64,000 nucleotides of DNA from Alphaproteobacteria bacterium (GTDB lineage: Bacteria; Pseudomonadota; Alphaproteobacteria; UBA828): contig CBDEFM010000002.1 in assembly GCA_965237415.1 (NCBI GenBank), forward strand, positions 3,232,001-3,296,000, in the 5' to 3' direction. Of the stretch, positions 4,227-63,499 are shown piece after piece (positions within the stretch are counted from its first letter, which is position 1; the number at the start of each line of letters is the position of its first letter). Position numbers and translations under genes: made by a program. The notes beneath the pieces are model-generated. The model was given only the letters and a program-made list of their open reading frames with translations. It did not search any database and had not been told where the DNA came from.

Positions 4227-5459
4227 TCAGGAGAGGACCAGCGAGACCAGTCCGTCGGCGAGCTTGGGCTCGAACCAGGTGGTTTTCGGCGGCAGGATCG
4301 CGCTTGCATCGGCGACCGCCATGAGGTCCTCCACGGAGGTCGGATAGAGCGAGAAGGCCACTGTCGCGTCGCCGTTATCGACCGCCGCCGCGAGCGCCTC
4401 CACGCCGCGCACGCCGCCCACGAAGTCGATCCGCGCATCGAGCCTGGGATCGCCAATGCCGAGGATCGGCCCAAGAACCAGGCGCGCGAGGAGCGAAACG
4501 TCGAGACGATCGACCGCCGCACCGCTGGCTGGCACCAGTCCTCCGGCGGCGAGGCGGTGCCAGCGGCCCCCCACATACATGCCGAAGTGCGCCGGCTGCG
4601 CGGGCTCCACCGGCCCCTCCGCCGGCTCGCAGCCGAGCGTCTGGCCGATCCGGCGCAGGAACGCGGCGGATGTGAGCCCGTTCAGGCCCCGCACGATTCG
4701 GTGATAGCCGAGGATGCGCACCTCGTCGGCGGGGAAGCTCACCGTCAACAGACGGCCGGCTGCCTCTCCCGTCCCTGCTCCCATCGCCTGGGCCGCTGTC
4801 TGCGCCGCGGCGGCGCGGTGGTGGCCGTCGGCGATATAGAGCGCGCCGATCCGGTCGAACCGTTCCGTCAGCGCGCCGATCTCGTCGGCGCCGTCGATCG
4901 GCCAGAGCATATGCGTCACCGTTCCGCCGTGCACGGAGCGGCAGAGCGGCGGCCCCGCGCAGGCCGCGGCGATCAGGCGGCGAACCTCTTCGTCTGGCCG
5001 GTGAATCAGGAGCAGGGGGCCCGTCTGCGCGCCGAGCGCTTCTATGTGCCGGGCGCGATCCTCCACTTTGGGCGGCCGGGTCGATTCGTGCCGCTTGATC
5101 GCGCCTTGCTCGTAGGCCGCGAGGGAGGCCGCAGCCACCAGCCCCGTCTGCGCGCGGCCTTGCGCCTCCATGCGCCAGGCGTAGAAGCGGGGCGCCGTAT
5201 CGCAGATCAGGACTCCGCTCTCGATCATCCGCGAGAACGCCGTCGCCGCCCCTTCGTAGAGCGCAGGCGCGCCAGGTGGCGTCTCGGGCGGCAGGTCGAT
5301 CTCCGGTCGGGAGACGTGGAGGAAGCTCCGCGGACGCCCCTGAGCGGCGGCCCGCGCCTCCTCTGTGGAGAGCACGTCATAGGGCGGCGCCAACACTGCA
5401 TCCGCATGGTGCGGGGCGACGCGGAGCCCAGCGAAGGGCGCGAGCAGTCGCTCGCTCAC
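4227..5459 (-). CDS. DUF1015 family protein (ParB/sulfiredoxin-like fold)
   Basis: APPYDV, IKRHEST, LYIADGHHR, PPKTTWFEPKLADGL signature motifs. Confidence 0.9.
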   Translation of the reverse strand: MSERLLAPFAGLRVAPHHADAVLAPPYDVLSTEEARAAAQGRPRSFLHVSRPEIDLPPETPPGAPALYEGAATAFSRMIESGVLICDTAPRFYAWRMEAQGRAQTGLVAAASLAAYEQGAIKRHESTRPPKVEDRARHIEALGAQTGPLLLIHRPDEEVRRLIAAACAGPPLCRSVHGGTVTHMLWPIDGADEIGALTERFDRIGALYIADGHHRAAAAQTAAQAMGAGTGEAAGRLLTVSFPADEVRILGYHRIVRGLNGLTSAAFLRRIGQTLGCEPAEGPVEPAQPAHFGMYVGGRWHRLAAGGLVPASGAAVDRLDVSLLARLVLGPILGIGDPRLDARIDFVGGVRGVEALAAAVDNGDATVAFSLYPTSVEDLMAVADASAILPPKTTWFEPKLADGLVSLVLS

Positions 5460-6674: not shown

Positions 6675-7808
6675 CTACTGCGTGCCGCCCTGGCGGCGTT
6701 GAAGCTCGGGCAGGGGCAGGTAGGGCACGACGCCGGAGGAGCCCCCCGCGCCCGAATCGATGATGATCTTGTCCAGCCCGCCGAGCACTTCCTCCATCGT
6801 CTCCAGATACATGCGCCGGCGGACGACATCCGCGTTCTGCGCGTACTCGGCGTGGACCGCAACGAAGCGCGACGCCTCGCCCTGGGCCTCGGCGACGATC
6901 TGCTCCTTGTAGGCCGTGCCCTCCTGCACGAGGCGTTCCGCCGCGCCGCGTGCACGCGGGATGATGTCGTTGCGGTAGGACTCGGCCTCGTTCTTCGCCC
7001 GCTCCTGGTCCGCCCGCGCGGCCTGCACGTCGCGGAAGCTGGCGATCACCGCGTCCGGCGGCGCAATGTCCTGCGGCTCGATCTGGGTGACTTCGATGCC
7101 GGCGCCGTAATAGTCCAGGATCGACTGGGTCAGTTCGTGAGTCTGCTGGGCCAAGAGAAACCGCTCCTCGGCAAGGGCGGATTGCAGGCGGGTCTTGCCG
7201 ATCACCTCGCGCATCGCGCTCTCGGCCGCGTCCCTCACCGTGCGGTCCGGCGCCTGGATGTTGAACAGATACTGGCCGGCATCGCGGATGCGCCAGAAGG
7301 CGGTGAACTTCACGTCGATGATGTTCTCATCGCCGGTGAGCATCAGACTCTCGTCCGGCACTGGCCGCGTGAACGCCCCCCGGTTGGAGTCAACCAGGGT
7401 CCGGTAGCCGATCTCGGCCCGGTTGATCTTCGTCACCTTGGGCAAGAGAACCGTCTCGAAGGGCCAGGGCAGATGATAGTTGAGGCCCGGCTGGGTAGTC
7501 TGGGTCCACTCGCCCCAGCGCAGCACCACGCCCTGCTCGTCGGGCTCGACGCGGTAGAAGCCGGTCAGCAGCCAGATGCCGAGCACGATGATGAGGAGCA
7601 GGATGAGGCCGCGGCCCCCGCGCACTCCGGGCATAAATCGGCGGAAGCGATCCTGCCCACGCCGGAGCATCTCTTCGAGGTCTGGCGGTGGGGTTTGCTG
7701 CCCACCACGCCGGCCGCCGCCGCCCGGTGAGCGGCCCCACGGGCCGCCACCACCGCCGCCGCCGCCGCTTTGCCAGCCGCCACCGCCGCCTTGGCTAGAC
7801 CAGGGCAT
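6675..7808 (-). CDS. hflK: FtsH protease modulator HflK
   Basis: MPW..GGGPWG..PPDLEE N-terminus, MLTGDENI, RMYLETMEEV. Confidence 0.96.
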   Translation of the reverse strand: MPWSSQGGGGGWQSGGGGGGGGPWGRSPGGGGRRGGQQTPPPDLEEMLRRGQDRFRRFMPGVRGGRGLILLLIIVLGIWLLTGFYRVEPDEQGVVLRWGEWTQTTQPGLNYHLPWPFETVLLPKVTKINRAEIGYRTLVDSNRGAFTRPVPDESLMLTGDENIIDVKFTAFWRIRDAGQYLFNIQAPDRTVRDAAESAMREVIGKTRLQSALAEERFLLAQQTHELTQSILDYYGAGIEVTQIEPQDIAPPDAVIASFRDVQAARADQERAKNEAESYRNDIIPRARGAAERLVQEGTAYKEQIVAEAQGEASRFVAVHAEYAQNADVVRRRMYLETMEEVLGGLDKIIIDSGAGGSSGVVPYLPLPELQRRQGGTQ

Positions 7809-7938
7809 GGTTCGGCCTCTCCTCCAAGGCTTTGCAAGCTATCATCGGCGCCTTATAAGTCATGCGGTCGCCGCACGCAACGGCGCGCTTGCACGCTCGC
7901 AGCTATCCGCGGCGCGCCCCCCGGGTCGGAGTGGAACG

Positions 7939-9105
7939 ATGGCGTCAGTCACCAAGGAGCAGGTTCTGGCGGCGCTGACCGATGTCTTGGACCCGGACAG
8001 CGGGCAGAACGTCGTCGCCGGCGGGCTGATCAGCGGTGTGGTGGTCAAGGACGGCAACGTCGGTTTTGCGCTCGAGGTCGACCCGGCTCAGGGCGCGGCG
8101 AAGGAGCCGCTGCGCAAGGCCTGCGAGACGGCGGTCGACCGGTTGCCCGGCGTGCTCTCGGTGACGGCGGTGATGACCGCCGAGAGGCAGGCCTCCGGCC
8201 AGGCGAACGGCCACAGCGACGCGCATGGACATGGTCACGCTCATGGCGGGCAGGCCCAGGCGGGGGCGTCGCAGGCGGGGGCGTCGCAGGCGGACCAACT
8301 CCTGCCCGGCGTGAAGAGCTTGATCGCCATCGCGTCGGGCAAGGGTGGAGTCGGCAAGTCGACGACAGCCGTGAACCTCGCTACGGCCATGGCCGCCCAG
8401 AACGTCCGGGTCGGTCTGCTCGACTGCGACATCTACGGCCCCTCGATCCCGCGCATGCTCAATCTGAGCGGCCAGCCGGAGTTGGTGGGGGAGCGCACGC
8501 TGCGCCCCATGGCGAATTACGGGATCAAGTGCATGTCGATCGGGTTCCTCGTCGCCGAGGACACGGCCATGATCTGGCGCGGCCCGATGGTCATGCAGGC
8601 GCTCGAACAGATGATGCGCGACGTCGATTGGGGCGAGCTTGACGTGCTGCTTTGCGACTTGCCGCCGGGCACCGGCGATGCGCAGCTCACCATGGCGCAG
8701 CGGGTCCCGCTCACCGGCGCCGTGATCGTCTCGACCCCGCAGGATATCGCGCTGCTCGACGTGACCCGGGGCATCAACATGTTCCAGCAGGTCAACGTGC
8801 CGATCTTCGGGGTCGTGGAAAACATGAGCTACTACGTGTGCCCCGAGTGCGGCCACCGCGCCGAGATCTTCCACCATGGCGGCGCGCGCGAGACGGCGCG
8901 CCGTCTCGGTGTCGACTTCCTGGGCGAAATTCCGCTCGACCTGGACATCAGAACGACCTCGGATTCGGGCCGCCCCATCGTGGTCACCCAGCCTGACAGC
9001 CCCCACGCCGCGTCCTACCGGCGGATCGCCGCCGGCCTCATCGACAAGGCGACCTCGGCGGTGGGCGGCGCGGGGCGCCCGCAGCCCCGCATCGTCATGA
9101 TGTGA
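7939..9105 (+). CDS. apbC: Mrp/ApbC (NBP35 family) Fe-S cluster carrier ATPase
   Basis: ASGKGGVGKSTT, MIWRGPM, DLPPGTGD, CPECG; ATG at 7939. Confidence 0.93.
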   Translation: MASVTKEQVLAALTDVLDPDSGQNVVAGGLISGVVVKDGNVGFALEVDPAQGAAKEPLRKACETAVDRLPGVLSVTAVMTAERQASGQANGHSDAHGHGHAHGGQAQAGASQAGASQADQLLPGVKSLIAIASGKGGVGKSTTAVNLATAMAAQNVRVGLLDCDIYGPSIPRMLNLSGQPELVGERTLRPMANYGIKCMSIGFLVAEDTAMIWRGPMVMQALEQMMRDVDWGELDVLLCDLPPGTGDAQLTMAQRVPLTGAVIVSTPQDIALLDVTRGINMFQQVNVPIFGVVENMSYYVCPECGHRAEIFHHGGARETARRLGVDFLGEIPLDLDIRTTSDSGRPIVVTQPDSPHAASYRRIAAGLIDKATSAVGGAGRPQPRIVMM

Positions 9106-9801: not shown

Positions 9802-9876
9802 TCGCCCGCCCGGCATTCTCGCCACGATTCCCGCCCCTTCCTTTGGGGATTATACGCCTAACTAGCCATTTTCCGT

Positions 9877-9905
9877 TTGACGCCAGCCTGCATTATCGCC
9901 ACAAT
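9877..9905 (+). promoter_or_regulatory. Candidate sigma70 promoter for the transposase/cargo operon
   Basis: TTGACG-17bp-CACAAT just inside the left TIR. Confidence 0.55.
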
Positions 9906-9949
9906 ACTAGCCAAGAAAGCGCTTGCGGCGAATCGAGAGGATGCTGAAG

Positions 9950-10891
9950 ATGGCTAAGCGTGGTCCTGGCAAGGCGCACCGAGAGGGGCTGACGGTCATT
10001 GAACTGTTCAAGCTCTTTCCCGACGATGCCACCGCCGAAGTGTGGTTTGAGGCACAGCGCTGGCCGGAAGGCCGGTTCTGCCCGGACTGCGGATCGACCA
10101 ACACGGTTGAGGTCAAAAGCCGCAAGCCCATGCCCTATCGGTGCCGCGACTGCCGCCACCACTTCTCCGTCCGCAAGGGCACGGCAATGCAGTCCTCCAA
10201 GATCGGGCTGCAAAAGTGGGTCATCGCGCTCTACATGATGACCACCGGCCTCAAGGGCACATCCAGCATGAAGCTCTACCGCGAGGTCGGCATCCGGCAG
10301 GCCACGGCATGGTTTTTGATGCAGCGCATCCGGGAAGGCTTCACGGACGGCGAGAACCAGCCCTTTCCCGGCCCCGTAGAGGCCGATGAGACGTACATGG
10401 GCGGCAAGCGGAAGAACATGCCGAAAGCGAAGCGCAAGACGCTGACGGGGCGCGGAGCGGTCGGTAAGGTGGCAGTCGCAGGCGTGAAGGATCGAGCGAC
10501 CAACCGCGTCGTGGCTCGGTCAGTTCCGGCTACCGACAAGCCGACCCTTCAAGGCTTTGTTGCCCAGCATGCGGCTCCCGACGCCAAAGTGTTCACCGAC
10601 GATGCCAGCGCCTACGAAGGGCTGCCCTTCGATCACGAGGCGGTCTGTCACTCCGCCGGTGAGTATGTTCGCGGTATGGCGCACACCAACGGCATCGAGT
10701 CGTTCTGGTCGATGCTCAAGAGGGGCTATCAGGGCACCTATCACCACCTGAGCGAGAAGCACTTGGATCGCTATGTCGCGGAGTTCGCGGGTCGCCATAA
10801 TGTTCGCGAGTTTGACACGATCACGCAGATGTCCCAGCTGGCGAAGGGCATGGTCGGCAAGCGCCTCACCTATCGCGAGTTGGTCGCTTGA
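9950..10891 (+). CDS. IS1595 family DDE transposase
   Basis: Zn ribbon CPDC..CRDC; VEADETYMGG, VFTDD, HTNGIESFWS catalytic motifs; GAGAGG RBS before ATG 9950. Confidence 0.95.
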   Translation: MAKRGPGKAHREGLTVIELFKLFPDDATAEVWFEAQRWPEGRFCPDCGSTNTVEVKSRKPMPYRCRDCRHHFSVRKGTAMQSSKIGLQKWVIALYMMTTGLKGTSSMKLYREVGIRQATAWFLMQRIREGFTDGENQPFPGPVEADETYMGGKRKNMPKAKRKTLTGRGAVGKVAVAGVKDRATNRVVARSVPATDKPTLQGFVAQHAAPDAKVFTDDASAYEGLPFDHEAVCHSAGEYVRGMAHTNGIESFWSMLKRGYQGTYHHLSEKHLDRYVAEFAGRHNVREFDTITQMSQLAKGMVGKRLTYRELVA

Positions 10892-11835
10892 GCGGGGAGA
10901 CGCTTGAAACGAGAGGGTATGCTGGGACTGGTGCGCGCGGCGCCCCCTACATCAAAGCGGACACCTACACCCCTTCCCATCATGTTCGGGTCGACGATCT
11001 GGAGAGAGACCCGTTCACCGAAATCTCGCAGTGCTTGCTACTATGCGGAGACGCAAGGCAGGCCCTCTCGCTTCTCCCGGATAACTCGGTTCAGACCGTT
11101 CTGACTTCGCCACCCTATTGGTCTCTCCGAGACTACGAGGTCGAGGAACAGACTGGGAGGGACGACAATCTGGACTCCTACATTGAGAGCGTTGTCGGGA
11201 CCTTCGACGAGGTGTTCCGTGTCCTTCGGGACGACGGCACCGTTTGGCTGAATGTCGGGGATTCCTATACCTCCGGGAATCGCCGCTACCGAGCCCCTGA
11301 TCGAAAGAACCGCGCGCGAGCAATGCAAGTTCGCCCCCCGACACCTGAGGGGTTGAAGCCAAAGGATCTGATCGGCGTTCCATGGCGGTTGGCATTCGCC
11401 CTTCAGGAAGCCGGGTGGTGGCTCCGCAGCGAAGTTATTTGGCACAAGCCGAACGCGCATCCTGAATCGGTTCTGGATCGGCCGACAAAGGCGCACGAGA
11501 CGATATTCCTGCTATCGAAGGCCAAGGATTACCACTACGACATTGAAGCCGTTCGTGGCCCTAAGGGCCGTCGCCTGCGTTCCGTGTGGGATTTGCCTAC
11601 CGAGCCGGTGAAACGATCGAACGGTCGGGCCGACGACCATCCAGCGATGATGCCGCTCACACTCGCCCTGCGGTGCATCGCGATCACCGGCCGCAAGGAT
11701 GGTGTTGTGCTCGATCCTTATGCAGGTTCCGGGACCACCCTGCTGGCGGCGGCCGAACACGGATACATGTGGGTCGGAGCCGAAATCAAGCCGTCTTTCG
11801 TCGACCTGATCGAGCACCGGATAGACGACGCGTGA
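10888..11835 (+). CDS. Site-specific DNA methyltransferase, beta class N4/N6 (probably m4C, M.SmaI/M.Cfr9I-like)
   Basis: TSPPYW (motif IV) precedes DPYAGSGTT (motif I); KPKDLIGVPWRLAFALQ; TTG start overlaps the transposase stop. Confidence 0.93.
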   Translation: MSGETLETRGYAGTGARGAPYIKADTYTPSHHVRVDDLERDPFTEISQCLLLCGDARQALSLLPDNSVQTVLTSPPYWSLRDYEVEEQTGRDDNLDSYIESVVGTFDEVFRVLRDDGTVWLNVGDSYTSGNRRYRAPDRKNRARAMQVRPPTPEGLKPKDLIGVPWRLAFALQEAGWWLRSEVIWHKPNAHPESVLDRPTKAHETIFLLSKAKDYHYDIEAVRGPKGRRLRSVWDLPTEPVKRSNGRADDHPAMMPLTLALRCIAITGRKDGVVLDPYAGSGTTLLAAAEHGYMWVGAEIKPSFVDLIEHRIDDA

Positions 11836-12587
11836 CCCTCGAAGAACTAAAGGCGACGCTCGACTCCTTCTCCTCCGTGCAGATCGAGTTCGTGGCGAGA
11901 GTCATGGACTCCCTCGCCAACCCGCCCAGCGCTGACATCCGGCGAGCCGGAACATGGCTCACGGGGACGCCGGAATGGATGGAGTATTTTGGGCTAGCGC
12001 TGTCCGTTCATCACAGCGCGACCACCGAGCCATTGGGGTTGACGGCCTTCGAGGCCGTGTTCCGGAATGCCTGCGAGCATCTCGGCTGGCCCGTCGACCC
12101 TCCGGGATCGCGGACGCGCCGGTTCGTCGATCTGACCGTTCAGCCGGACACTGGACCGGAGCGGCGACTATCGCTGAAATCTACTGCGGCCGGCAATCTC
12201 TCACATACGTCCGTCCACATTTCCAAGCTCACCGAGGCTGCTTGGGTGCAGGACACACGCACCGCAAGAGCGAGGCAGAGTCGGACGTGGGAACTGTTCC
12301 GGGAATACCAGTCCGCCGTCAGCCATATCGTCATGCTTCGAGCGTTCCGAGAGGGGCAGGACCGTGTTCCGCGCCTCTATCAACTCGTAGAGATACCGGC
12401 CAGCATCTTCGACTCGATCCAGTCTGCCCCGCTGTCTGTATTCGAGCGCGATGCGCCGCTCATAGAGTGCGAGGTCGACGGCGAGGCGGCTGCCGTGGTT
12501 GCCATTGATCGATCCGACGCCAAAATCACCATCAGGCGGATACAGCTTGCTGCCTGTACTGTTCACGCCGAATGGAGCCGAGCATGA
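11832..12587 (+). CDS. Putative type II restriction endonuclease, SmaI-like
   Basis: GTGA overlap with the MTase stop; blocks HH..T.PL...FE, SRT..VDLTV, LSLKSTAA.NLS...HISK, YQLVEIP and C.VHAEW resemble R.SmaI as recalled (not aligned). Confidence 0.72.
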   Translation: MTLEELKATLDSFSSVQIEFVARVMDSLANPPSADIRRAGTWLTGTPEWMEYFGLALSVHHSATTEPLGLTAFEAVFRNACEHLGWPVDPPGSRTRRFVDLTVQPDTGPERRLSLKSTAAGNLSHTSVHISKLTEAAWVQDTRTARARQSRTWELFREYQSAVSHIVMLRAFREGQDRVPRLYQLVEIPASIFDSIQSAPLSVFERDAPLIECEVDGEAAAVVAIDRSDAKITIRRIQLAACTVHAEWSRA

Positions 12588-12748
12588 CCGAAAAGCCGAA
12601 ACCGCGTGGCCGTCCGCCAAAGGCAATCCCGAAGCTGAACGCCACGCCGGAGCGCGCAGCCCGCGCCATATTCTCCGCCGTGAAACCCGCCGACCCCACA
12701 ATCCGCGTTCAGAAGCCCCACATGCGGAAGCCGAAACCGAGGGATTGA
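12584..12748 (+). CDS. 54-aa basic protein with an AT-hook-like motif
   Basis: Manual translation MTEKPKPRGRPPKAIPKLNATPERAARAIFSAVKPADPTIRVQKPHMRKPKPRD*; ATGA overlap with the REase stop. Confidence 0.6.
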   Translation: MTEKPKPRGRPPKAIPKLNATPERAARAIFSAVKPADPTIRVQKPHMRKPKPRD

Positions 12749-12752
12749 TGAG

Positions 12753-13040
12753 ATGGGGGAACGATGGATCGCCAACCCCGAGATGCCCAAGCCGTTCCCG
12801 CTGAAACTGGAGTCAATCCGCAGAGCGGCTGTGGAACGATGGGGTGATGCTCCCATTTTGGAAGATGAATCCGCCAGGGCCACAATTCTGCTGTGGGTCT
12901 ACGCTGGGTGCCCAGACGCAGCGGATGTTTGCCTCAACGTCGCAACACGCCAACCACCCGTCCCAGGACAGGGAGAGATGAATCCCGAAGCATTCATGAC
13001 CGCGCTCTTCAAGCGCGGGGTCTTTCTGCCTGCAGAATAG
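12753..13040 (+). CDS. Hypothetical protein (IS cargo)
   Basis: 95-aa ORF 4 nt after the previous stop, ending 9 nt before the right TIR. Confidence 0.45.
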   Translation: MGERWIANPEMPKPFPLKLESIRRAAVERWGDAPILEDESARATILLWVYAGCPDAADVCLNVATRQPPVPGQGEMNPEAFMTALFKRGVFLPAE

Positions 13041-13084
13041 CCGACGGGTTGGCTAGTTAGGCGTATAATCCCCCTTCCTTTCGG

Positions 13085-13565: not shown

Positions 13566-14609
13566 CTAGGGATCGCGCCCCAGCACCGCCATCAGCTCGC
13601 GCCACTCGCGCTTGGAGAGCCCGCTGCTCGCCTGATCGACCGCTTCGCCGGCGAGCATGCGCTTGACCGCGGCGAGCCCGCCTGCGGAGAGCGACGCGGC
13701 GTCCATCGCATAGTCGCGGAAGGCTTGGTACGTCGCAGGCACCCAGCTCATGACGATCTTGTCGAGGATCACGTCGGCATAGGCGCGGATTTCGTACTGG
13801 GCGTGGGCATCGGCCCGGAGCGAGAGGAAGTGCAGGAGGTTGTGCAGGTCGATCTTCCAGTAGAACTGGGTGTAGTAGTTGACCGGCAGCGCCGCGCGCG
13901 CGAGCTCGCGGGCGAGCCCGGCACGATCCGGGTCCTTTCGATCCCCGCTGTCGTCCTCGTTGAGCAGGTTCTTGTAGACGCCATAGGCGCGGGTCGAAAT
14001 CCAATCGAGGCGAGAGAGTGCCTGCCGGGCCTCCTCGTCGGTCAGCACATCGTCCCGGCCCTGCATGTTGGAATCGGATTGCGCGGCGAGGGCCAACCGC
14101 TCACCCGCTGCCTCCGTGCTGCCGAACAGGTCGTCCATGCCGCTGCTGCTGGCCCGCTGGCGCCCGATCTGCTCCTCGTGGACCGATTGCAGGTGGTCCG
14201 CGTCCGGCACGTAGAACTCGCGGTCCAGCCGCGAGTAGCGCGCCGAATATTCGTTGACGCTGGCGGTGCGGTGGCGGAGCCACTGCCGCGCGACGAAGAT
14301 CGGCGCCTTGATGTGCAGCTTGAGCTCGCACATCTCGAAGGGCGTCGTGTGGCGGTGGCGCAGGAGATAGCGGATCAGCGCGCGGTCCTCCCGCACCTTG
14401 CGCGTGCCCGCGCCGTAGGAAACCCGCGCCGCCTGGACGATGGCCGCGTCGTCGCCCATGTAGTCGATCACGCGGACGAAGCCGTGATCGAGCACGTCGA
14501 AGCGCTCGTAGAGGATCGCCTCCATGGCCGGCACCGTGACGCGCCGGGTCTCCTGCGAGGTGGCGCGTTGGGCCTCGATCTCCGCCCGCTTGTGGTCGTC
14601 GATCGGCAT
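13566..14609 (-). CDS. thyX: FAD-dependent thymidylate synthase
   Basis: [19 protein letters not shown] ThyX motif; AARVSY; HAQYEIR; ATG at 14609 (the longer ORF overlaps ssrA). Confidence 0.95.
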
Positions 14610-14700
14610 GGTGTCGGTGATCCCCGGTGGCGCGGTTCGGCCGGCCAAGTCGGCGGTCGCGCTTCGCTCGGACGGCCGCTCGTGGCGCCCTATTGGCCGC

Positions 14701-14729
14701 TTCCATTTGGCGCCGCGACCTCCTATATT
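14701..14729 (+). promoter_or_regulatory. Candidate ssrA promoter
   Basis: TTCCAT-17bp-TATATT immediately upstream of the tmRNA. Confidence 0.45.
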
Positions 14730-14733
14730 AGCT

Positions 14734-15020
14734 GGGTCGGCGGGAGACCGTCGACTATGGCGATAAACGCTGCTCGGAATAATCGTTGCGGACCCGGGGG
14801 CAGTACCCGGCGCCTCCACCACCCTTTGGGCCGGCGGCCCGCGTTGCGGGGGCGAACCAGGATCGACGTGCGTGGTAAAGGTGTAGTTTTCGCCCGGCAT
14901 GGTACCGCCGTTATCGGGCCAACGCAGAGGTGCGAATGACAATGAAGTCGCACTCGCTGCCTAGCATCGCTAGGTAAGCGCGGCTTGGGGGGCGCCGGGC
15001 AACAGAAGCCCCCCGCTTAC
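14734..15020 (+). ncRNA. ssrA: Two-piece (permuted) tmRNA
   Basis: T-arm/acceptor GGACCCGGGGGCAGTACCCGGCGCCTCCACCA (ends 14821) precedes GGGGGCGAACCAGGATCGAC (14848); tag [10 protein letters not shown] at 14932-14964; between thyX and sspB. Outer ends approximate. Confidence 0.93.
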
Positions 15021-60926: not shown

Positions 60927-61360
60927 CCCGCTACCTTCTGGACACCAACATCATTAGCAACGTCACGAAGGCAGCGCCGTCAGAGGCCCTGCTCGCCTGG
61001 ATGGCCGAACAGATCGACGACGATCTCTTAATTTCCTCGCTCACGATTGCGGAAATTCGGCGCGGCATTTTGGAGAAGCCTGCTGGCCGCCGGCGCAATG
61101 CGCTCAAGGCCTGGTTCGCGGGCCCCGAAGGCCCGTCCGCTCTCTTCGCGGGCCGCGTTCTGCCGTTCGACGAGACTGCCGGGCTCGTCTGGGCGCGACT
61201 CATGGCTGAAGGCCGGGCGGAAGGCCGTCCCCGCAGCGCGCTCGACACCATCATCGCCGCGACCGCAGAAGCCAACGGCTGTATCGTCGTCACGGACAAC
61301 GAGCGGGACTTTCCCGGCGTCGAGACCTTCAACCCGGTTCGGCCCGCCGCCCGCCATTGA
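60923..61360 (+). CDS. VapC/PIN toxin
   Basis: YLLDTNIIS, TIAEI, DTIIAATA, VTDNERDF. Confidence 0.92.
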   Translation: MTRYLLDTNIISNVTKAAPSEALLAWMAEQIDDDLLISSLTIAEIRRGILEKPAGRRRNALKAWFAGPEGPSALFAGRVLPFDETAGLVWARLMAEGRAEGRPRSALDTIIAATAEANGCIVVTDNERDFPGVETFNPVRPAARH

Positions 61361-61419
61361 CAGGTAGCGGCGATGGCCCGAGTCTCGGGCCGCTTTCGTC
61401 GAGCAGGGCTGGAGACCCC

Positions 61420-62526
61420 ATGAGCGGGAGGGGCGGAATCGACTTCGCCTTTGTGGCGGCGCCGGTGGGCGAGGAGGGGCTCTCCGACGCCGCGCTCTAC
61501 AAGGAGATTCTGGCGGACTGCGACTTCGCTCACCGGGCCGGCTACCGCGCGGCCTGGATGATCGAGCATCATTTCTCCGACTACTTCCCGACGCCCAACC
61601 CCTTGGCCTTCCTCTCCCACATCGCCGCGCGCTTCCCGGATTTCGCGCTCGGCACCTGCGTGCTGGTGACGCCCTGGTACGAGCCGCTCAGGCTCGCCGA
61701 GGAGATCGCGCAGCTCAACCTGCTCACCGACCAGCCGCTCCATCTCGGCCTCGGCCGGGGCACGGCGAAGTACGAGTACGACGCCTTCGGCGTGGCGATG
61801 GAGGAGAGCCGGCAGCGCTTCCGCGAGGTCTGGGAGATCGTGAGCACCGCGCTCGCCGGCGGGCGCTTCCGCTACGAAGGCCAGTATCTCAGCGTCCCCA
61901 CCCGCGTCGAGCTGCGCCCCCGCTCCGACACGAGCAAGATCAACTTCTACGGCGCCGTCGGCGGCAGCCCTGAGTCGGGCGCGGTGATGGCCTCGCTTGG
62001 CCTCCCGCCGATCATGACCGCCTTCAGCAATCTGCCGCTGCAGCGCGAGGCGCTCTCCGGCTGGAAGGAGGCGGCAGAGACCCACGGTATGGACGTGAAC
62101 GCCTTCCGCTACCCGATGATGGTCAACTGCATCATCGCCGATGAGGACGAGGAGGCCTACGCGCTCGCCAAGCGCTACATCCCGCGCTTCCAGCAGGCGC
62201 AGATCGACCATTACGAGGCCGACGACGGGCATTTCGAGACCCTCTCGACCTACACCGCCTGGGCCAGGATCTTCGCCAAGATGAAGGAGCGCACCGATCC
62301 CGCCAACATCCCGCCCTGGGCCGACGGGCAGTTCGTGGGCTCGCCCGAGACCGTGCGCCAGCGGGTCGAAGCTTACGTGGATGCGGGCTTCAACAGCTTC
62401 CTCATCCACACGGCGACGCCCGGCGTGCCGCGCCGCCACCGGCAGGCCTGGCTCGGCCGCTTTGCGGACGAGGTGGCGCCCTGTTTCGCCGGCGGCGAGG
62501 CGTTGCGCGCCGCCGCCAGCGCCTGA
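61420..62526 (+). CDS. LLM class flavin-dependent oxidoreductase
   Basis: WMIEHHFS, PLRLAEEIAQL, LGLGRG. Confidence 0.88.
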   Translation: MSGRGGIDFAFVAAPVGEEGLSDAALYKEILADCDFAHRAGYRAAWMIEHHFSDYFPTPNPLAFLSHIAARFPDFALGTCVLVTPWYEPLRLAEEIAQLNLLTDQPLHLGLGRGTAKYEYDAFGVAMEESRQRFREVWEIVSTALAGGRFRYEGQYLSVPTRVELRPRSDTSKINFYGAVGGSPESGAVMASLGLPPIMTAFSNLPLQREALSGWKEAAETHGMDVNAFRYPMMVNCIIADEDEEAYALAKRYIPRFQQAQIDHYEADDGHFETLSTYTAWARIFAKMKERTDPANIPPWADGQFVGSPETVRQRVEAYVDAGFNSFLIHTATPGVPRRHRQAWLGRFADEVAPCFAGGEALRAAASA

Positions 62527-62563
62527 CGGGCGCCACCCGCGGGTGTCCGAGAAGGAAGCGACC

Positions 62564-63499
62564 ATGAAGCTCGACCCCGCGCTTGCGGAGATCCTCGCCT
62601 CGCTCGACCCGAGCGCTGAGACGCCGGTCGAGGCGATGACGCCGGAAGACGCGCGCAGGGTGTGGAAGGAGGAGATGGCGGCCGTCGCCGGCCCGCGGCT
62701 GCCGGTGAAATCCGTCAGCACGCACGAGGCGCCCGGGCCTGCCGGGCCGCTCGCGGTGCGCCTCTACGAGCCGGAGGGGGCCGGCGCCGGCCCGCAGCCG
62801 ATCCTCGTCTACTGCCACGGCGGTGGCTGGATTCGCGGCGACCTCGACACCCACGACGATGTCTGCCGCTACCTCTGCCATCACGCGGGCTGCCTGGTGG
62901 CGTCGGTGGCCTATCGCCTCGCGCCGGAGCACCGCTTCCCCGCAGCACTTGAGGACTGCGACGCCGCGACCCGTTGGGTGGCGGAGAACGCCGCCCGCCT
63001 CGGCGCCGATCCGGACCGTCTCGCCATCGGCGGCGACAGCGCCGGCGGCAACATCGCCTGCGGGGTGACGCTCAAGGCGCGCGATCGCGGCCGCCCGGCA
63101 ATCGCCTTTCAACTCCTCATCTATCCGGCGACCGACCTCGCCGGCGAGACCGAGTCCAAGCGGCTCTACTCCTCGGGCTACCTGCTCGACTCGATGCCCT
63201 TCTACGTCGCGAGCTACCTGGGGCCGGAGGGCGATGCGGCCGCGCCGCTCGCCTCGCCGCTGCTGGCGCCGGACCTTTCCAACCTGCCACCGGCCTTCGT
63301 AATGACCGCCGGCTTCGATCCGCTGCGGGACGAGGGCGAGGCCTACGCCAGGCGGCTAGAAGCGGCAGGCGTGCCCACGGACCATCGCTGCCATGAGAGC
63401 ATGATCCACGGCTTCGTCTCGATCACCGGCCTGATCGAGAATGCCGAGGCCGGTTTGGCCGACGCGGCGGCGGCGTTGCGTGCCGCCTTCAACCAGTGA
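62564..63499 (+). CDS. HSL-family alpha/beta hydrolase (esterase)
   Basis: HGGGW, GDSAGG, DPLRDEG, HGF. Confidence 0.92.
   Translation: MKLDPALAEILASLDPSAETPVEAMTPEDARRVWKEEMAAVAGPRLPVKSVSTHEAPGPAGPLAVRLYEPEGAGAGPQPILVYCHGGGWIRGDLDTHDDVCRYLCHHAGCLVASVAYRLAPEHRFPAALEDCDAATRWVAENAARLGADPDRLAIGGDSAGGNIACGVTLKARDRGRPAIAFQLLIYPATDLAGETESKRLYSSGYLLDSMPFYVASYLGPEGDAAAPLASPLLAPDLSNLPPAFVMTAGFDPLRDEGEAYARRLEAAGVPTDHRCHESMIHGFVSITGLIENAEAGLADAAAALRAAFNQ

Follow-up and report, generated by a model that had tools for sequence, protein, structure and literature searches.

A probable IS1595-family transporter element carrying a predicted SmaI-family restriction-modification system

Phylogenetic incongruence is the usual evidence that restriction-modification (R-M) genes have spread between species and between phyla. 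In the 64-kb stretch of DNA analysed here (the window, 64,000 nucleotides in all), a type II methyltransferase (MTase) gene and a restriction endonuclease (REase) gene lie between the ends of a single insertion sequence, raising the question of whether the R-M pair moves as part of that element. The best explanation is that positions 9845-13073 are probably an autonomous transporter IS of the IS1595 family, with a predicted complete type IIP R-M system of the SmaI family and two small open reading frames, orf4 and orf5, as its passengers. The features of the region are as follows.

9837..9844, no strand: left copy of the target-site duplication (TSD), CTTCCTTT, read from the sequence and matched to the right copy
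9845..9868, plus strand: left terminal inverted repeat (IRL), GGGGATTATACGCCTAACTAGCCA, 24 nt, 100%
9877..9905, plus strand: candidate promoter-like site TTGACG-17 nt-CACAAT, sigma-70-like, just inside IRL and 5' of tnp
9935..9940, plus strand: Shine-Dalgarno-like GAGAGG, 9 nt 5' of the tnp ATG, read from the sequence
9950..10891, plus strand: tnp, IS1595-family DDE transposase, 313 aa, from Pfam and NCBIfam profiles and alignment
10888..11835, plus strand: type II MTase, beta-class N4/N6 amino-MTase, 315 aa, TTG start, from PF01555 and PADLOC
11832..12587, plus strand: predicted type II REase, Pfam SmaI family, 251 aa, GTG start, from PF17411 and PADLOC
12584..12748, plus strand: orf4, basic protein of 54 aa, ATG start, 31 homologues with a conserved core
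12753..13040, plus strand: orf5, conserved hypothetical protein of 95 aa, 11 homologues
13000..13018, plus strand: candidate terminator-like hairpin shortly before orf5 ends
13050..13073, minus strand: right terminal inverted repeat (IRR), 24 nt, 100% complementary to IRL
13074..13081, no strand: right copy of the TSD, CTTCCTTT, read from the sequence

The original prediction described one element with perfect 24-bp terminal inverted repeats (TIRs) and an exact 8-bp TSD around tnp, the MTase, the REase and two small ORFs, and this picture was borne out. The two arms are perfectly complementary and, allowing up to 3 mismatches, are the only 2 sites matching the 24-mer in 64 kb (0 expected, from 100 shuffles), with no further copy in the window; CTTCCTTT is present at both flanks, and 3229 bp with all five genes are enclosed between the duplications. 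TIRs with an 8-bp target duplication are features of the IS1595 family, and the probability that 8 bp agree by chance at two set places is about 1.5e-5 (4^-8). A longer flanking repeat, CCCCTTCCTTT, was rejected as the TSD; it arises because the CCC of the flank abuts the terminal CCCC of the TIR, and the 8-bp parse alone is consistent on both sides. A composite transposon built of two IS copies was also rejected, because there is a single transposase and a single pair of ends, and the location of the MTase, REase, orf4 and orf5 between IRL and IRR with that one transposase is the arrangement of a transporter IS. The insertion site is intergenic, with a transglycosylase (SLT_4) gene on one side and thyX on the other, in a part of the alphaproteobacterial chromosome given to housekeeping genes. 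The composition of the element is foreign to this host, with a GC content of 61.0% against 67.4% for the window, and GC3 values of 0.69 (MTase) and 0.66 (REase) against 0.72-0.93 for host ORFs. The insertion may be a recent one.

Assignment of the transposase to the IS1595 type, also part of the original prediction, holds up in profile matches to both its zinc ribbon and its DDE domain. The protein matches PF12762 over profile positions 4-153 of 153 (2e-39) and NF033547 with 190.8 bits against a cut-off of 75 (2.8e-56), and its N-terminal CxxC...CxxC zinc ribbon, seen as CPDC...CRDC in the alignment, matches PF12760 (2.5e-08, 34.2 bits, cut-off 25.4). EADETY, TDDASAY and NGIESFWSMLKR are present in the alignment, and the start at 9950 agrees with the N-termini of sibling transposases, MA(K). 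The window copy and those of three related loci, L080, L027 and L054, keep the catalytic D, D, E and K columns, and these are exactly the four copies that have both TIRs and a TSD. In the ISNwi1 subgroup of ISfinder the ends have the form GGnnnTTAT, the target duplications are 8 bp long, the motif is DDEK, and passenger genes are found in some members; the window element, with its GGGGATTAT ends and D-D-E-K pattern, may belong with them.

A comparison set of 80 related MTase-REase loci contains three complete sibling elements, inserted at unrelated sites in metagenome-assembled genomes (MAGs) of Actinomycetes, Alphaproteobacteria and Gammaproteobacteria.

L080, Actinomycetes MAG: 2794 bp, TIR GGGGATTATACGCCTAAGTTGC, TSD AAACTATA
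L027, Limibaculum MAG: 2946 bp, TSD TTTCGTAA
L054, Gammaproteobacteria MAG: 3327 bp, TSD AAAATTTC

The sibling ends are related, GGG(G)A(A)TTAT..., each sibling has a perfect 8-bp duplication of its own, and the targets of all four elements are A/T-rich. Because the siblings are complete, share related ends and have their own TSDs, sequence comparison supports transposition of the transposase-MTase-REase package as a unit, giving the mobility originally proposed a backing from elsewhere than the window. When the surroundings of the full set of 80 R-M pairs were scanned for ungapped inverted repeats, IS-type ends turned up at L027, L038, L054 and L080 only, with L038 keeping its TIRs and having no TSD. 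A motif scan for ends added doubtful single matches only, at L020 and L060, and neither of the transposase-bearing loci L012 and L025 yielded ends. The intact package is distributed over Actinomycetota and two classes of Pseudomonadota, a truncated copy is found in Verrucomicrobiota, and decayed forms occur in further phyla, among them Chloroflexota, Acidobacteriota and Gemmatimonadota.

The MTase-REase pair is kept in 80/80 related loci, and in 15 of them an IS1595 transposase, or a C-terminal remnant of one, immediately precedes the MTase on the same strand. The other 65 pairs have no detectable transposase upstream of the MTase (62 of the 80 loci have no transposase-like match anywhere), and at L026 an IS1595 element is inserted beside, not around, such a pair, as might be expected if the window simply held a resident R-M pair between an ordinary IS1595 copy and the solo end of another. 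Such a chance juxtaposition is nevertheless extremely improbable, and is already largely refuted by the presence of one left and one right end as perfect inverted copies with an exact 8-bp duplication, by the separate TSDs of the three siblings, and by the recurrence, in 7/7 transposase-bearing copies, of both the gene order and a tnp stop that overlaps the MTase start by 4 nt. On a tree of MTase plus REase the transposase label is clustered, with 5 changes where shuffled labels averaged 14.9 and 0 of 500 shuffles as low, and every member of the window's own clade (9 rows) is transposase-linked.

With 65 of the 80 pairs lacking an upstream transposase and 9 retaining a remnant only, the R-M genes must also persist after transposase loss, and a transposase that is dispensable for their persistence means that other vehicles are possible. 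Plasmids gave no match to the whole element by megablast; a protein search with the REase returned 7 distant plasmid matches only, the best of them on Arthrobacter plasmids (40%), with an MTase and without a transposase, and annotated plasmid transposases were distant only, at best <=42% identical to tnp. The R-M cassette could itself be the primary mobile unit, swapping IS1595 backbones or contexts by recombination, so that its link to the transposase in the window would be a recent capture. Three backbone groups (the window with L080, L027 with L012, and L054 with L038) can be told apart by how similar their transposases are, by their TIRs and by which kind of small ORF follows the REase, and yet the window MTase and REase are nearer to those of L027, L012 and L025 (71-79%) than to those of L080 (71% and 64%), which lies far from the window on the MTase plus REase tree. 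Transposase and R-M pairwise identities are thus only partly congruent, which leaves room for cassette exchange in place of strict co-descent. We consider exchange unlikely, however, because the same 4-nt tnp/MTase junction is found in all three backbone groups, an agreement not expected from captures that happened independently; differences in rate between genes could also account for the incongruence, and the position of L080, a long branch, is uncertain.

The window element could instead be fixed and no longer mobile, or partly dead, with an inactive transposase or an inactive REase (the R-M system being, for example, reduced to a de facto orphan methyltransferase), and nearing the transposase-less state of most relatives. 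Decay is common among the relatives, where two transposases are truncated, nine are reduced to remnants and that of L012 is full-length with A replacing the catalytic E, and the L038 TIRs without a TSD point the same way, as do the single copy within 64 kb and a 5-aa insertion in the window orf5 that is absent from all 10 aligned homologues. Inactivity is nonetheless quite improbable for the window copy, as every frame is open, the catalytic columns of the transposase are kept, the TIRs and TSD are exact, and all 81 columns invariant over 32 REase sequences (the window among them) are retained.

The passengers were first proposed to be a type II MTase together with a distinct REase, and matches of Pfam and PADLOC profiles to both proteins agree with this. 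The MTase matches PF01555 (1.4e-44, 153 bits) and PADLOC MTase_II PDLC03387 (2.2e-95), its relatives in the PDB include CcrM and N4-cytosine MTases, and its translation contains the motif TSPPYW; the SPPY motif is typical of N4-cytosine enzymes. The REase scores 27.4 bits against PF17411, 0.1 bit above the cut-off of 27.3, with residues 8-248 aligned to profile positions 3-238 of 240, and matches PADLOC REase_II at 2.4e-16. It has 945 homologues, and PF17411 is found in 98 of the 120 matches listed. A sequence search of the PDB with the REase gave nothing meaningful. The fold of an AF2 model (pLDDT 89) resembles, though weakly, those of EcoRV, which gave the best matches, and of further PD-(D/E)XK nucleases, with no PDB match at E <= 0.001 and TM-scores of 0.25-0.31; EcoRV is a blunt cutter, as is SmaI. 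The depletion of CCCGGG is unremarkable: it occurs 15 times in the window against 34 expected (O/E 0.44, rank 20 of 63 palindromes), its O/E over the loci pooled together is 0.73 (rank 11 of 64), and it is absent from the element itself.

The first four genes had been described as chained by overlaps of TTGA, GTGA and ATGA, and all three are present in the sequence: tnp stop with MTase start at 10888-10891, MTase stop with REase start at 11832-11835, and REase stop with orf4 start at 12584-12587. No in-frame MTase start other than the TTG at 10888 occurs ahead of residue 46, and in other loci, too, starts lie at the homologous position; the MTase stop and REase start overlap in 76 of 81 cases. 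We infer that the site at 9877-9905 functions as a promoter. A sigma-70-like scan of the region gave 2 sites against 0.8 expected, weak taken alone, and a TTGAC-like -35 with an A/T-rich -10 lies at the corresponding left-end place in L027, L038 and L054; a AATCGGAGAG-like, Shine-Dalgarno-like stretch is also found in L054 and L038. Terminator-like hairpins, the one at 13000-13018 included, number 2 in this region where 2.5 would be expected, which is not significant.

Neither small ORF has a family, or a helix-turn-helix (HTH), in Pfam, NCBIfam, PADLOC or PHROGs, which sustains the original view that there is no obvious controller C protein; the small HTH controller gene that marks the operons of C-protein-controlled R-M systems was not found here. 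The orf4 protein contains an AT-hook-like RGRPPK followed by a conserved ATPExxARAIFSAVKP, and its homologues, of 37-75 aa, align over this conserved core. The match to AT_hook (E=0.039) is below the cut-off, no relative was found by profile search in the PDB or in PHROGs, and the ESM Atlas returned unnamed hypothetical clusters only (score 0.93). Small ORFs related to orf4 occur 3' of the REase in transposase-linked copies only. Ten of the orf5 homologues are full-length, at 54-94% identity, and the alignment of 11 sequences has 26 invariant columns. There is no counterpart of orf5 in L080, L027, L054 or L038, and its AF2 model (pLDDT 75.6) gave no match in a fold search (best E 2.3), with no PDB relative by profile search and nothing in the ESM Atlas (0.77).

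In the transporter-IS reading preferred here, the single DDE transposase would bind the GGGGATTAT... ends and move the whole 3.2-kb unit into A/T-rich 8-bp sites. One promoter just inside the left end would give a polycistronic tnp-M-R-orf4 transcript, on which translation of the MTase (TTG) and REase (GTG) would each be coupled to that of the preceding gene. Because of such coupling, modification would be made whenever the transposase is made, and would come ahead of restriction and in larger amount. An established R-M system could defend against foreign DNA and penalise loss of the element by post-segregational killing; later, the transposase would often decay, leaving a fixed chromosomal R-M pair.

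A bolder extension, possible and held here only tentatively, is that the element represents an autonomous IS1595 lineage crossing phyla, in which transposase, m4C-type MTase and SmaI-like nuclease form one coupled operon. The IS would gain a module for addiction and defence, making its own loss costly, the R-M genes would gain a vehicle across phylum boundaries, and decayed copies such as the remnants at 9 of the 80 loci would seed the "ordinary" chromosomal R-M pairs of the family. The conserved AT-hook-like orf4, confined to transposase-linked copies, might be a new accessory factor that replaces a C protein or helps at the A/T-rich ends.

The element is probably a real vehicle for R-M spread, though not unprecedented, and it makes visible a concrete minimal form of such a vehicle: one transposase, two ends and an R-M pair. 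The probable translational coupling of MTase to transposase offers a testable way for the R-M system to establish itself safely when no C protein is present, and the small size, 3.2 kb, allows the whole element to be cloned and the role of restriction in IS retention and spread to be tested. In genome annotation, a transposase stub upstream of an MTase of this type can be read as the mark of a former mobile element.

Elements of this kind are already known, both as transporter IS of the IS1595 family and, since a 2010 description, as R-M units bounded by inverted repeats and duplications of 8 bp. A literature search found no description of an IS1595 element with a SmaI-type R-M system, and an earlier one may exist, because the 2010 report (Furuta, Abe and Kobayashi, PMC2853133) cites a 2009 IS1595 paper among reports of IS-flanked R-M or solitary M genes. 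Like the window element, tISCpe8 and MTnSag1 are described as having a single DDE transposase, TIRs of about 25 bp, a target duplication and internal passengers (PMC5704250). Their cargo, according to that account, is lincomycin resistance and mobilisation functions, whereas the window element carries R-M genes, chained to the transposase by overlaps. In the units of Furuta et al., as here, R-M genes lie between inverted repeats with 8-bp TSDs, and empty sites were found there in relatives (PMC2853133). No transposase gene is named in the description of the Xanthomonas oryzae unit, and the window element has one. The Neisseria gonorrhoeae unit has 26-bp perfect inverted repeats, an 8-bp TSD and a gene with transposase motif COG3677, called there a "likely inactivated derivative", together with an apparently truncated type IIG gene (PMC2853133). 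In the window element, by comparison, transposase, MTase and REase are apparently intact, the R-M genes are a classical two-gene type IIP pair, and the distribution is cross-phylum. The SmaI R-M family resembles the window pair, at the profile level, in a full-length PF17411 match and a beta-class SPPY amino-MTase partner, but the window REase scores just at the cut-off and CCCGGG is not distinctly avoided. Finally, Takahashi et al. (2011, PMC3031569) reported a cooperation of IS and R-M system, in that restriction selects cells in which an R-M system has moved together with an IS; there, linkage arose in the laboratory through cointegrates with chromosomal IS1 or IS5, whereas in the window element the R-M genes lie inside a single IS, between its own ends.

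The IS1595-type element that carries the restriction-modification (R-M) pair occupies 9845-13073 of the window, and its two arms, 24 nt each (9845-9868 and 13050-13073), are perfectly complementary. Directly outside both arms lies CTTCCTTT, at 9837-9844 and 13074-13081, with 3229 bp between the two copies, so that the perfect 24-bp terminal inverted repeats (TIRs) and exact 8-bp target-site duplication claimed in the original prediction were both located. The 24-mer arm, at up to 3 mismatches, occurs at no other place in the 64 kb, where 0 occurrences are expected by chance. The five genes claimed (transposase, methyltransferase, restriction endonuclease and two small ORFs) correspond to five same-strand frames in the ORF list, the first four of which are chained by stop/start overlaps of TTGA, GTGA and ATGA, the 4-nt junctions that had been described. 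The finding is genuine and its original interpretation correct.

Genes of the element in the window (ORF list and sequence)
9950-10891, + strand: tnp (ORF1), transposase
10888-11835, same strand as tnp: ORF2, methyltransferase (MTase), TTG start
11832-12587, same strand as tnp: ORF3, restriction endonuclease (REase), GTG start
12584-12748, same strand as tnp: orf4, small ORF, ATG start
12753-13040, same strand as tnp: orf5, small ORF, ATG start

By its sequence ORF1 is assigned as an IS1595-type transposase, with a whole-length match to the DDE domain PF12762 (2e-39) and a zinc ribbon, PF12760 (2.5e-08), in Pfam, and a score of 190.8 bits against a cut-off of 75 for NF033547 in NCBIfam. ORF2 matches PF01555 (1.4e-44, Pfam) and MTase_II (2.2e-95, PADLOC), and its relatives of solved structure include CcrM and several N4-cytosine enzymes. 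Motif IV of ORF2 reads SPPY, a form typical of N4-cytosine methyltransferases, and the protein is classed on these similarities as a beta-class N4/N6 DNA methyltransferase. In the window, no in-frame start other than the TTG at 10888 precedes the conserved MTase core, and many other related loci also have starts at the homologous position.

The match of ORF3 to the SmaI family of Pfam is end-to-end and at threshold (27.4 versus 27.3 bits), and a type II REase model in PADLOC matches at 2.4e-16. Homologues of ORF3 number 945 detectable sequences; the 120 of them that were listed are 68-88% identical, and 98 of these 120 carry a SmaI domain in precomputed annotation. An alignment of 32 homologues has D100, S114, K116 and E135 among its invariant residues, and D100...S114-x-K116 probably forms a centre of the PD-(D/E)XK type. 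The same alignment gave a confident AlphaFold model (pLDDT 89, pTM 0.85). Compared with the PDB, the model has no match at E <= 0.001; the best fold match is EcoRV at 4.5e-3, TM-scores are weak at about 0.25-0.31, and the matches listed are mostly PD-(D/E)XK nucleases (EcoRV, HincII, DpnI, HinP1I, BglI, MspI and Hjc). Membership of the SmaI family suggests CCCGGG as the predicted recognition site. This hexamer is only moderately under-represented, both in the window (15 observed versus 34.1 expected, rank 20 of 63) and in the pooled related loci (observed/expected 0.73, rank 11 of 64). Separately, among the well-populated hexamer palindromes of the window, GGATCC is the one most strongly depleted (4 observed versus 17.5 expected), which hints at a past or present BamHI-type system elsewhere in the host.

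The surroundings of the element are a housekeeping stretch. Pfam families were matched by 37 of the 41 flanking ORFs scanned, including acetolactate synthase, MiaA, HflK/C-like, Mrp/NUBPL, SLT_4 transglycosylase, ThyX, SspB, fumarase, DnaX, a Pst/PhoU/PhoB cluster and MutS. Two RNA genes, the first an alphaproteobacterial two-piece gene, indicate that the host is an alphaproteobacterium.

RNA genes in the window
14697-15017, + strand: alphaproteobacterial two-piece (permuted) tmRNA gene, 229.9 bits
22285-22377, + strand: bacterial small SRP RNA, just upstream of dnaX

The element lies 36 nt past the SLT_4 stop, in the gap that separates this gene from the convergent thyX, and its insertion interrupts no gene. 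The 458-aa ORF called for thyX (13566-14942, - strand) overlaps the tmRNA gene, and the Thy1 domain spans only residues 157-402, so thyX probably begins at a more internal start. The G+C content of the element is 61.0% versus 67.4% for the window, and GC3 is 0.69 for the MTase, 0.66 for the REase and 0.80 for the transposase, with host ORFs at 0.72-0.93; this composition and the perfect ends are in keeping with a fairly recent arrival and imply no date. Another ORF of the window, of 596 aa (60931-62721, - strand), has a GC3 of 0.72, below that of its neighbours, and matches no Pfam family at E <= 1e-5.

When the REase alignment was scanned against one genome per species, 274 related loci were confirmed, and the best 80 of them were kept (L001-L080). 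Record titles, from which taxonomy was taken, place these 80 in Alpha- and Gammaproteobacteria, Chloroflexota, Acidobacteriota, Gemmatimonadota, Latescibacterota, Cyanobacteria, Actinomycetota, Verrucomicrobiota and unclassified bacteria. An MTase accompanies the REase in 80/80 of these best loci, and the MTase stop and REase start overlap in 76 of 81 pairs including the window (by exactly 4 nt in 59); the two genes thus form a tightly coupled cassette of long standing. In L032, L053 and L064, the gaps from the first in-frame MTase stop to the REase start are 1625, 680 and 279 nt, which suggests either an insertion between the two genes or a broken MTase frame.

Searching the 80 loci with five transposases as queries gave a transposase-like match in 18 and none in the remaining 62; in 15 of the 18 the match immediately precedes the MTase, on the same strand.

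Transposase matches among the best 80 loci
Full-length, upstream of MTase (n = 4): L012, L027, L054, L080
Shortened, upstream of MTase (n = 2): L025, L038
C-terminal stub, upstream of MTase (n = 9): L001, L002, L010, L014, L030, L032, L040, L059, L063
Separate IS downstream of the R-M pair: L026
Distant, opposite strand: L056
Weak, distant: L031

In L026 a transposase-less R-M pair is followed by an IS1595 element (7279-8338) with GGGAATTATCGGAACG as its left end, then a TTGACA-like site and a transposase of 306 aa; no right end is present in the 1.3 kb left before the locus stops, and the element may carry other cargo. L040 has a 38-nt inverted repeat (4787-4824 and 7357-7394, 97% complementary), unrelated to IS1595 ends, which encloses the transposase stub, MTase, REase and small ORF with no 8-bp duplication seen; these repeats may belong to a different repeat element with copies on both flanks, or the cassette may have a second means of moving.

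Three of the 80 loci hold complete elements built like that of the window, and the same package has demonstrably been inserted independently in several genomes.

Complete sibling elements
L080: 2794 bp; ends GGGGATTATACGCCTAAGTTGC; duplication AAACTATA
L027: 2946 bp; ends GGGGATTATGTAGGAAAGTGCCGAAA; duplication TTTCGTAA
L054: 3327 bp; ends GGGAATTATGTAGCAAAATCCGC; duplication AAAATTTC

The target duplications of all four complete elements, window included, are A/T-rich, in G+C-rich genomes. These four are also the copies in which the transposase has kept the D, D, E and K columns; the L012 transposase has alanine in place of E. Matching ends are also present in L038, where the transposase has an internal deletion and there is no duplication, and a search for element ends in L012 and L025 found none. 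In 7/7 transposase-bearing copies the MTase start and the transposase stop share 4 nt (TTGA, GTGA or ATGA). A TTGAC-like -35 and an A/T-rich -10 precede the transposase at the left end of four elements (window, L027, L038 and L054).

On a quick IQ-TREE tree of concatenated MTase and REase (81 rows), transposase linkage is clustered, with 5 changes versus a shuffled mean of 14.9 and 0/500 shuffles as low, and is nonetheless found in at least three separate parts. The window falls in a clade of nine rows, all transposase-linked (SH-aLRT 91), whose sister is a Chloroflexota clade with stubs kept in two rows. The tree grossly conflicts with organism classification, as expected for horizontally moving genes. 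L034 and L036, titled Chloroflexota and Pseudomonadales, have near-identical R-M pairs (branch lengths 0 and 0.01), reflecting either a very recent transfer or a binning error. Judged by the identity of the transposase, the sequence of the ends and the type of small ORF, the backbones group as window with L080, L027 with L012, and L054 with L038, whereas the MTase and REase of the window are nearer to those of L027, L012 and L025 than to those of L080. This discordance suggests some exchange of cassettes between backbones, or unequal rates.

For the small ORFs orf4 (54 aa) and orf5 (95 aa), Pfam, NCBIfam, PADLOC and PHROGs give no family match. The element has no helix-turn-helix controller (C) protein, in line with the original prediction that none was obvious. 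Both ORFs are conserved at the protein level. The 31 homologues of orf4 share the motif RPRGRPPK, then ATPExxARAIFSAVKP. Of 11 orf5 homologues, 10 are full-length (54-94% identity, 26 invariant columns), and a structural neighbour search with the orf5 model (pLDDT 75.6) found none. Residues 41-45 of orf5 (12870-12884) are a five-residue insertion, SARAT, absent from all 10 aligned homologues, two of which are otherwise about 99% identical. In transposase-linked copies a small ORF overlaps or soon follows the REase stop; by sequence it falls into three types (window, L080 and L025; L027, L012 and L040; L054 and L038), and transposase-less loci have no recognisable counterpart. orf5 is an additional gene of the window's sub-lineage.

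These features are consistent with a mechanism in which the DDE transposase would move the whole unit, making 8-bp duplications in A/T-rich targets, and the genes would be transcribed from the candidate promoter inside the left end. With weak starts (TTG and GTG) and no strong ribosome-binding site of their own, the MTase and REase would be translated by coupling to the preceding gene, an arrangement that would let methylation precede and outweigh restriction with no need of a C protein. Once established, the R-M pair would act as a defence and addiction module stabilising the element, and the transposase would later tend to be removed by 5' deletions, leaving a stub that still abuts the MTase start.

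Transporter insertion sequences (tIS) of the IS1595 family are already established; tISCpe8 and MTnSag1 are described with 25-bp ends and a target duplication (PMC5704250). Furuta et al. 2010 (PMC2853133) report R-M units with inverted repeats and 8-bp duplications, and cite a 2009 IS1595 paper among reports of IS-flanked R-M or M genes. Their N. gonorrhoeae unit, which contains a COG3677 transposase-like gene, resembles the window element in its R-M genes, inverted repeats, 8-bp duplication and transposase-like gene. IS and transposons are among the R-M carriers listed by Oliveira et al. 2014, and experiments of Takahashi et al. 2011 (PMC3031569) showed that restriction selects for joint movement of IS and R-M. 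The literature searched, outside which the IS1595-family reviews lie, gave no account of an IS1595 element that carries a SmaI-type R-M. Three features appear to be absent from the literature compared: the conserved coupling of transposase and MTase, the occurrence of intact and decayed copies across phyla, and the small ORF specific to the tIS. The element is not a new category, and it is relevant to the study of both mobile elements and R-M systems.
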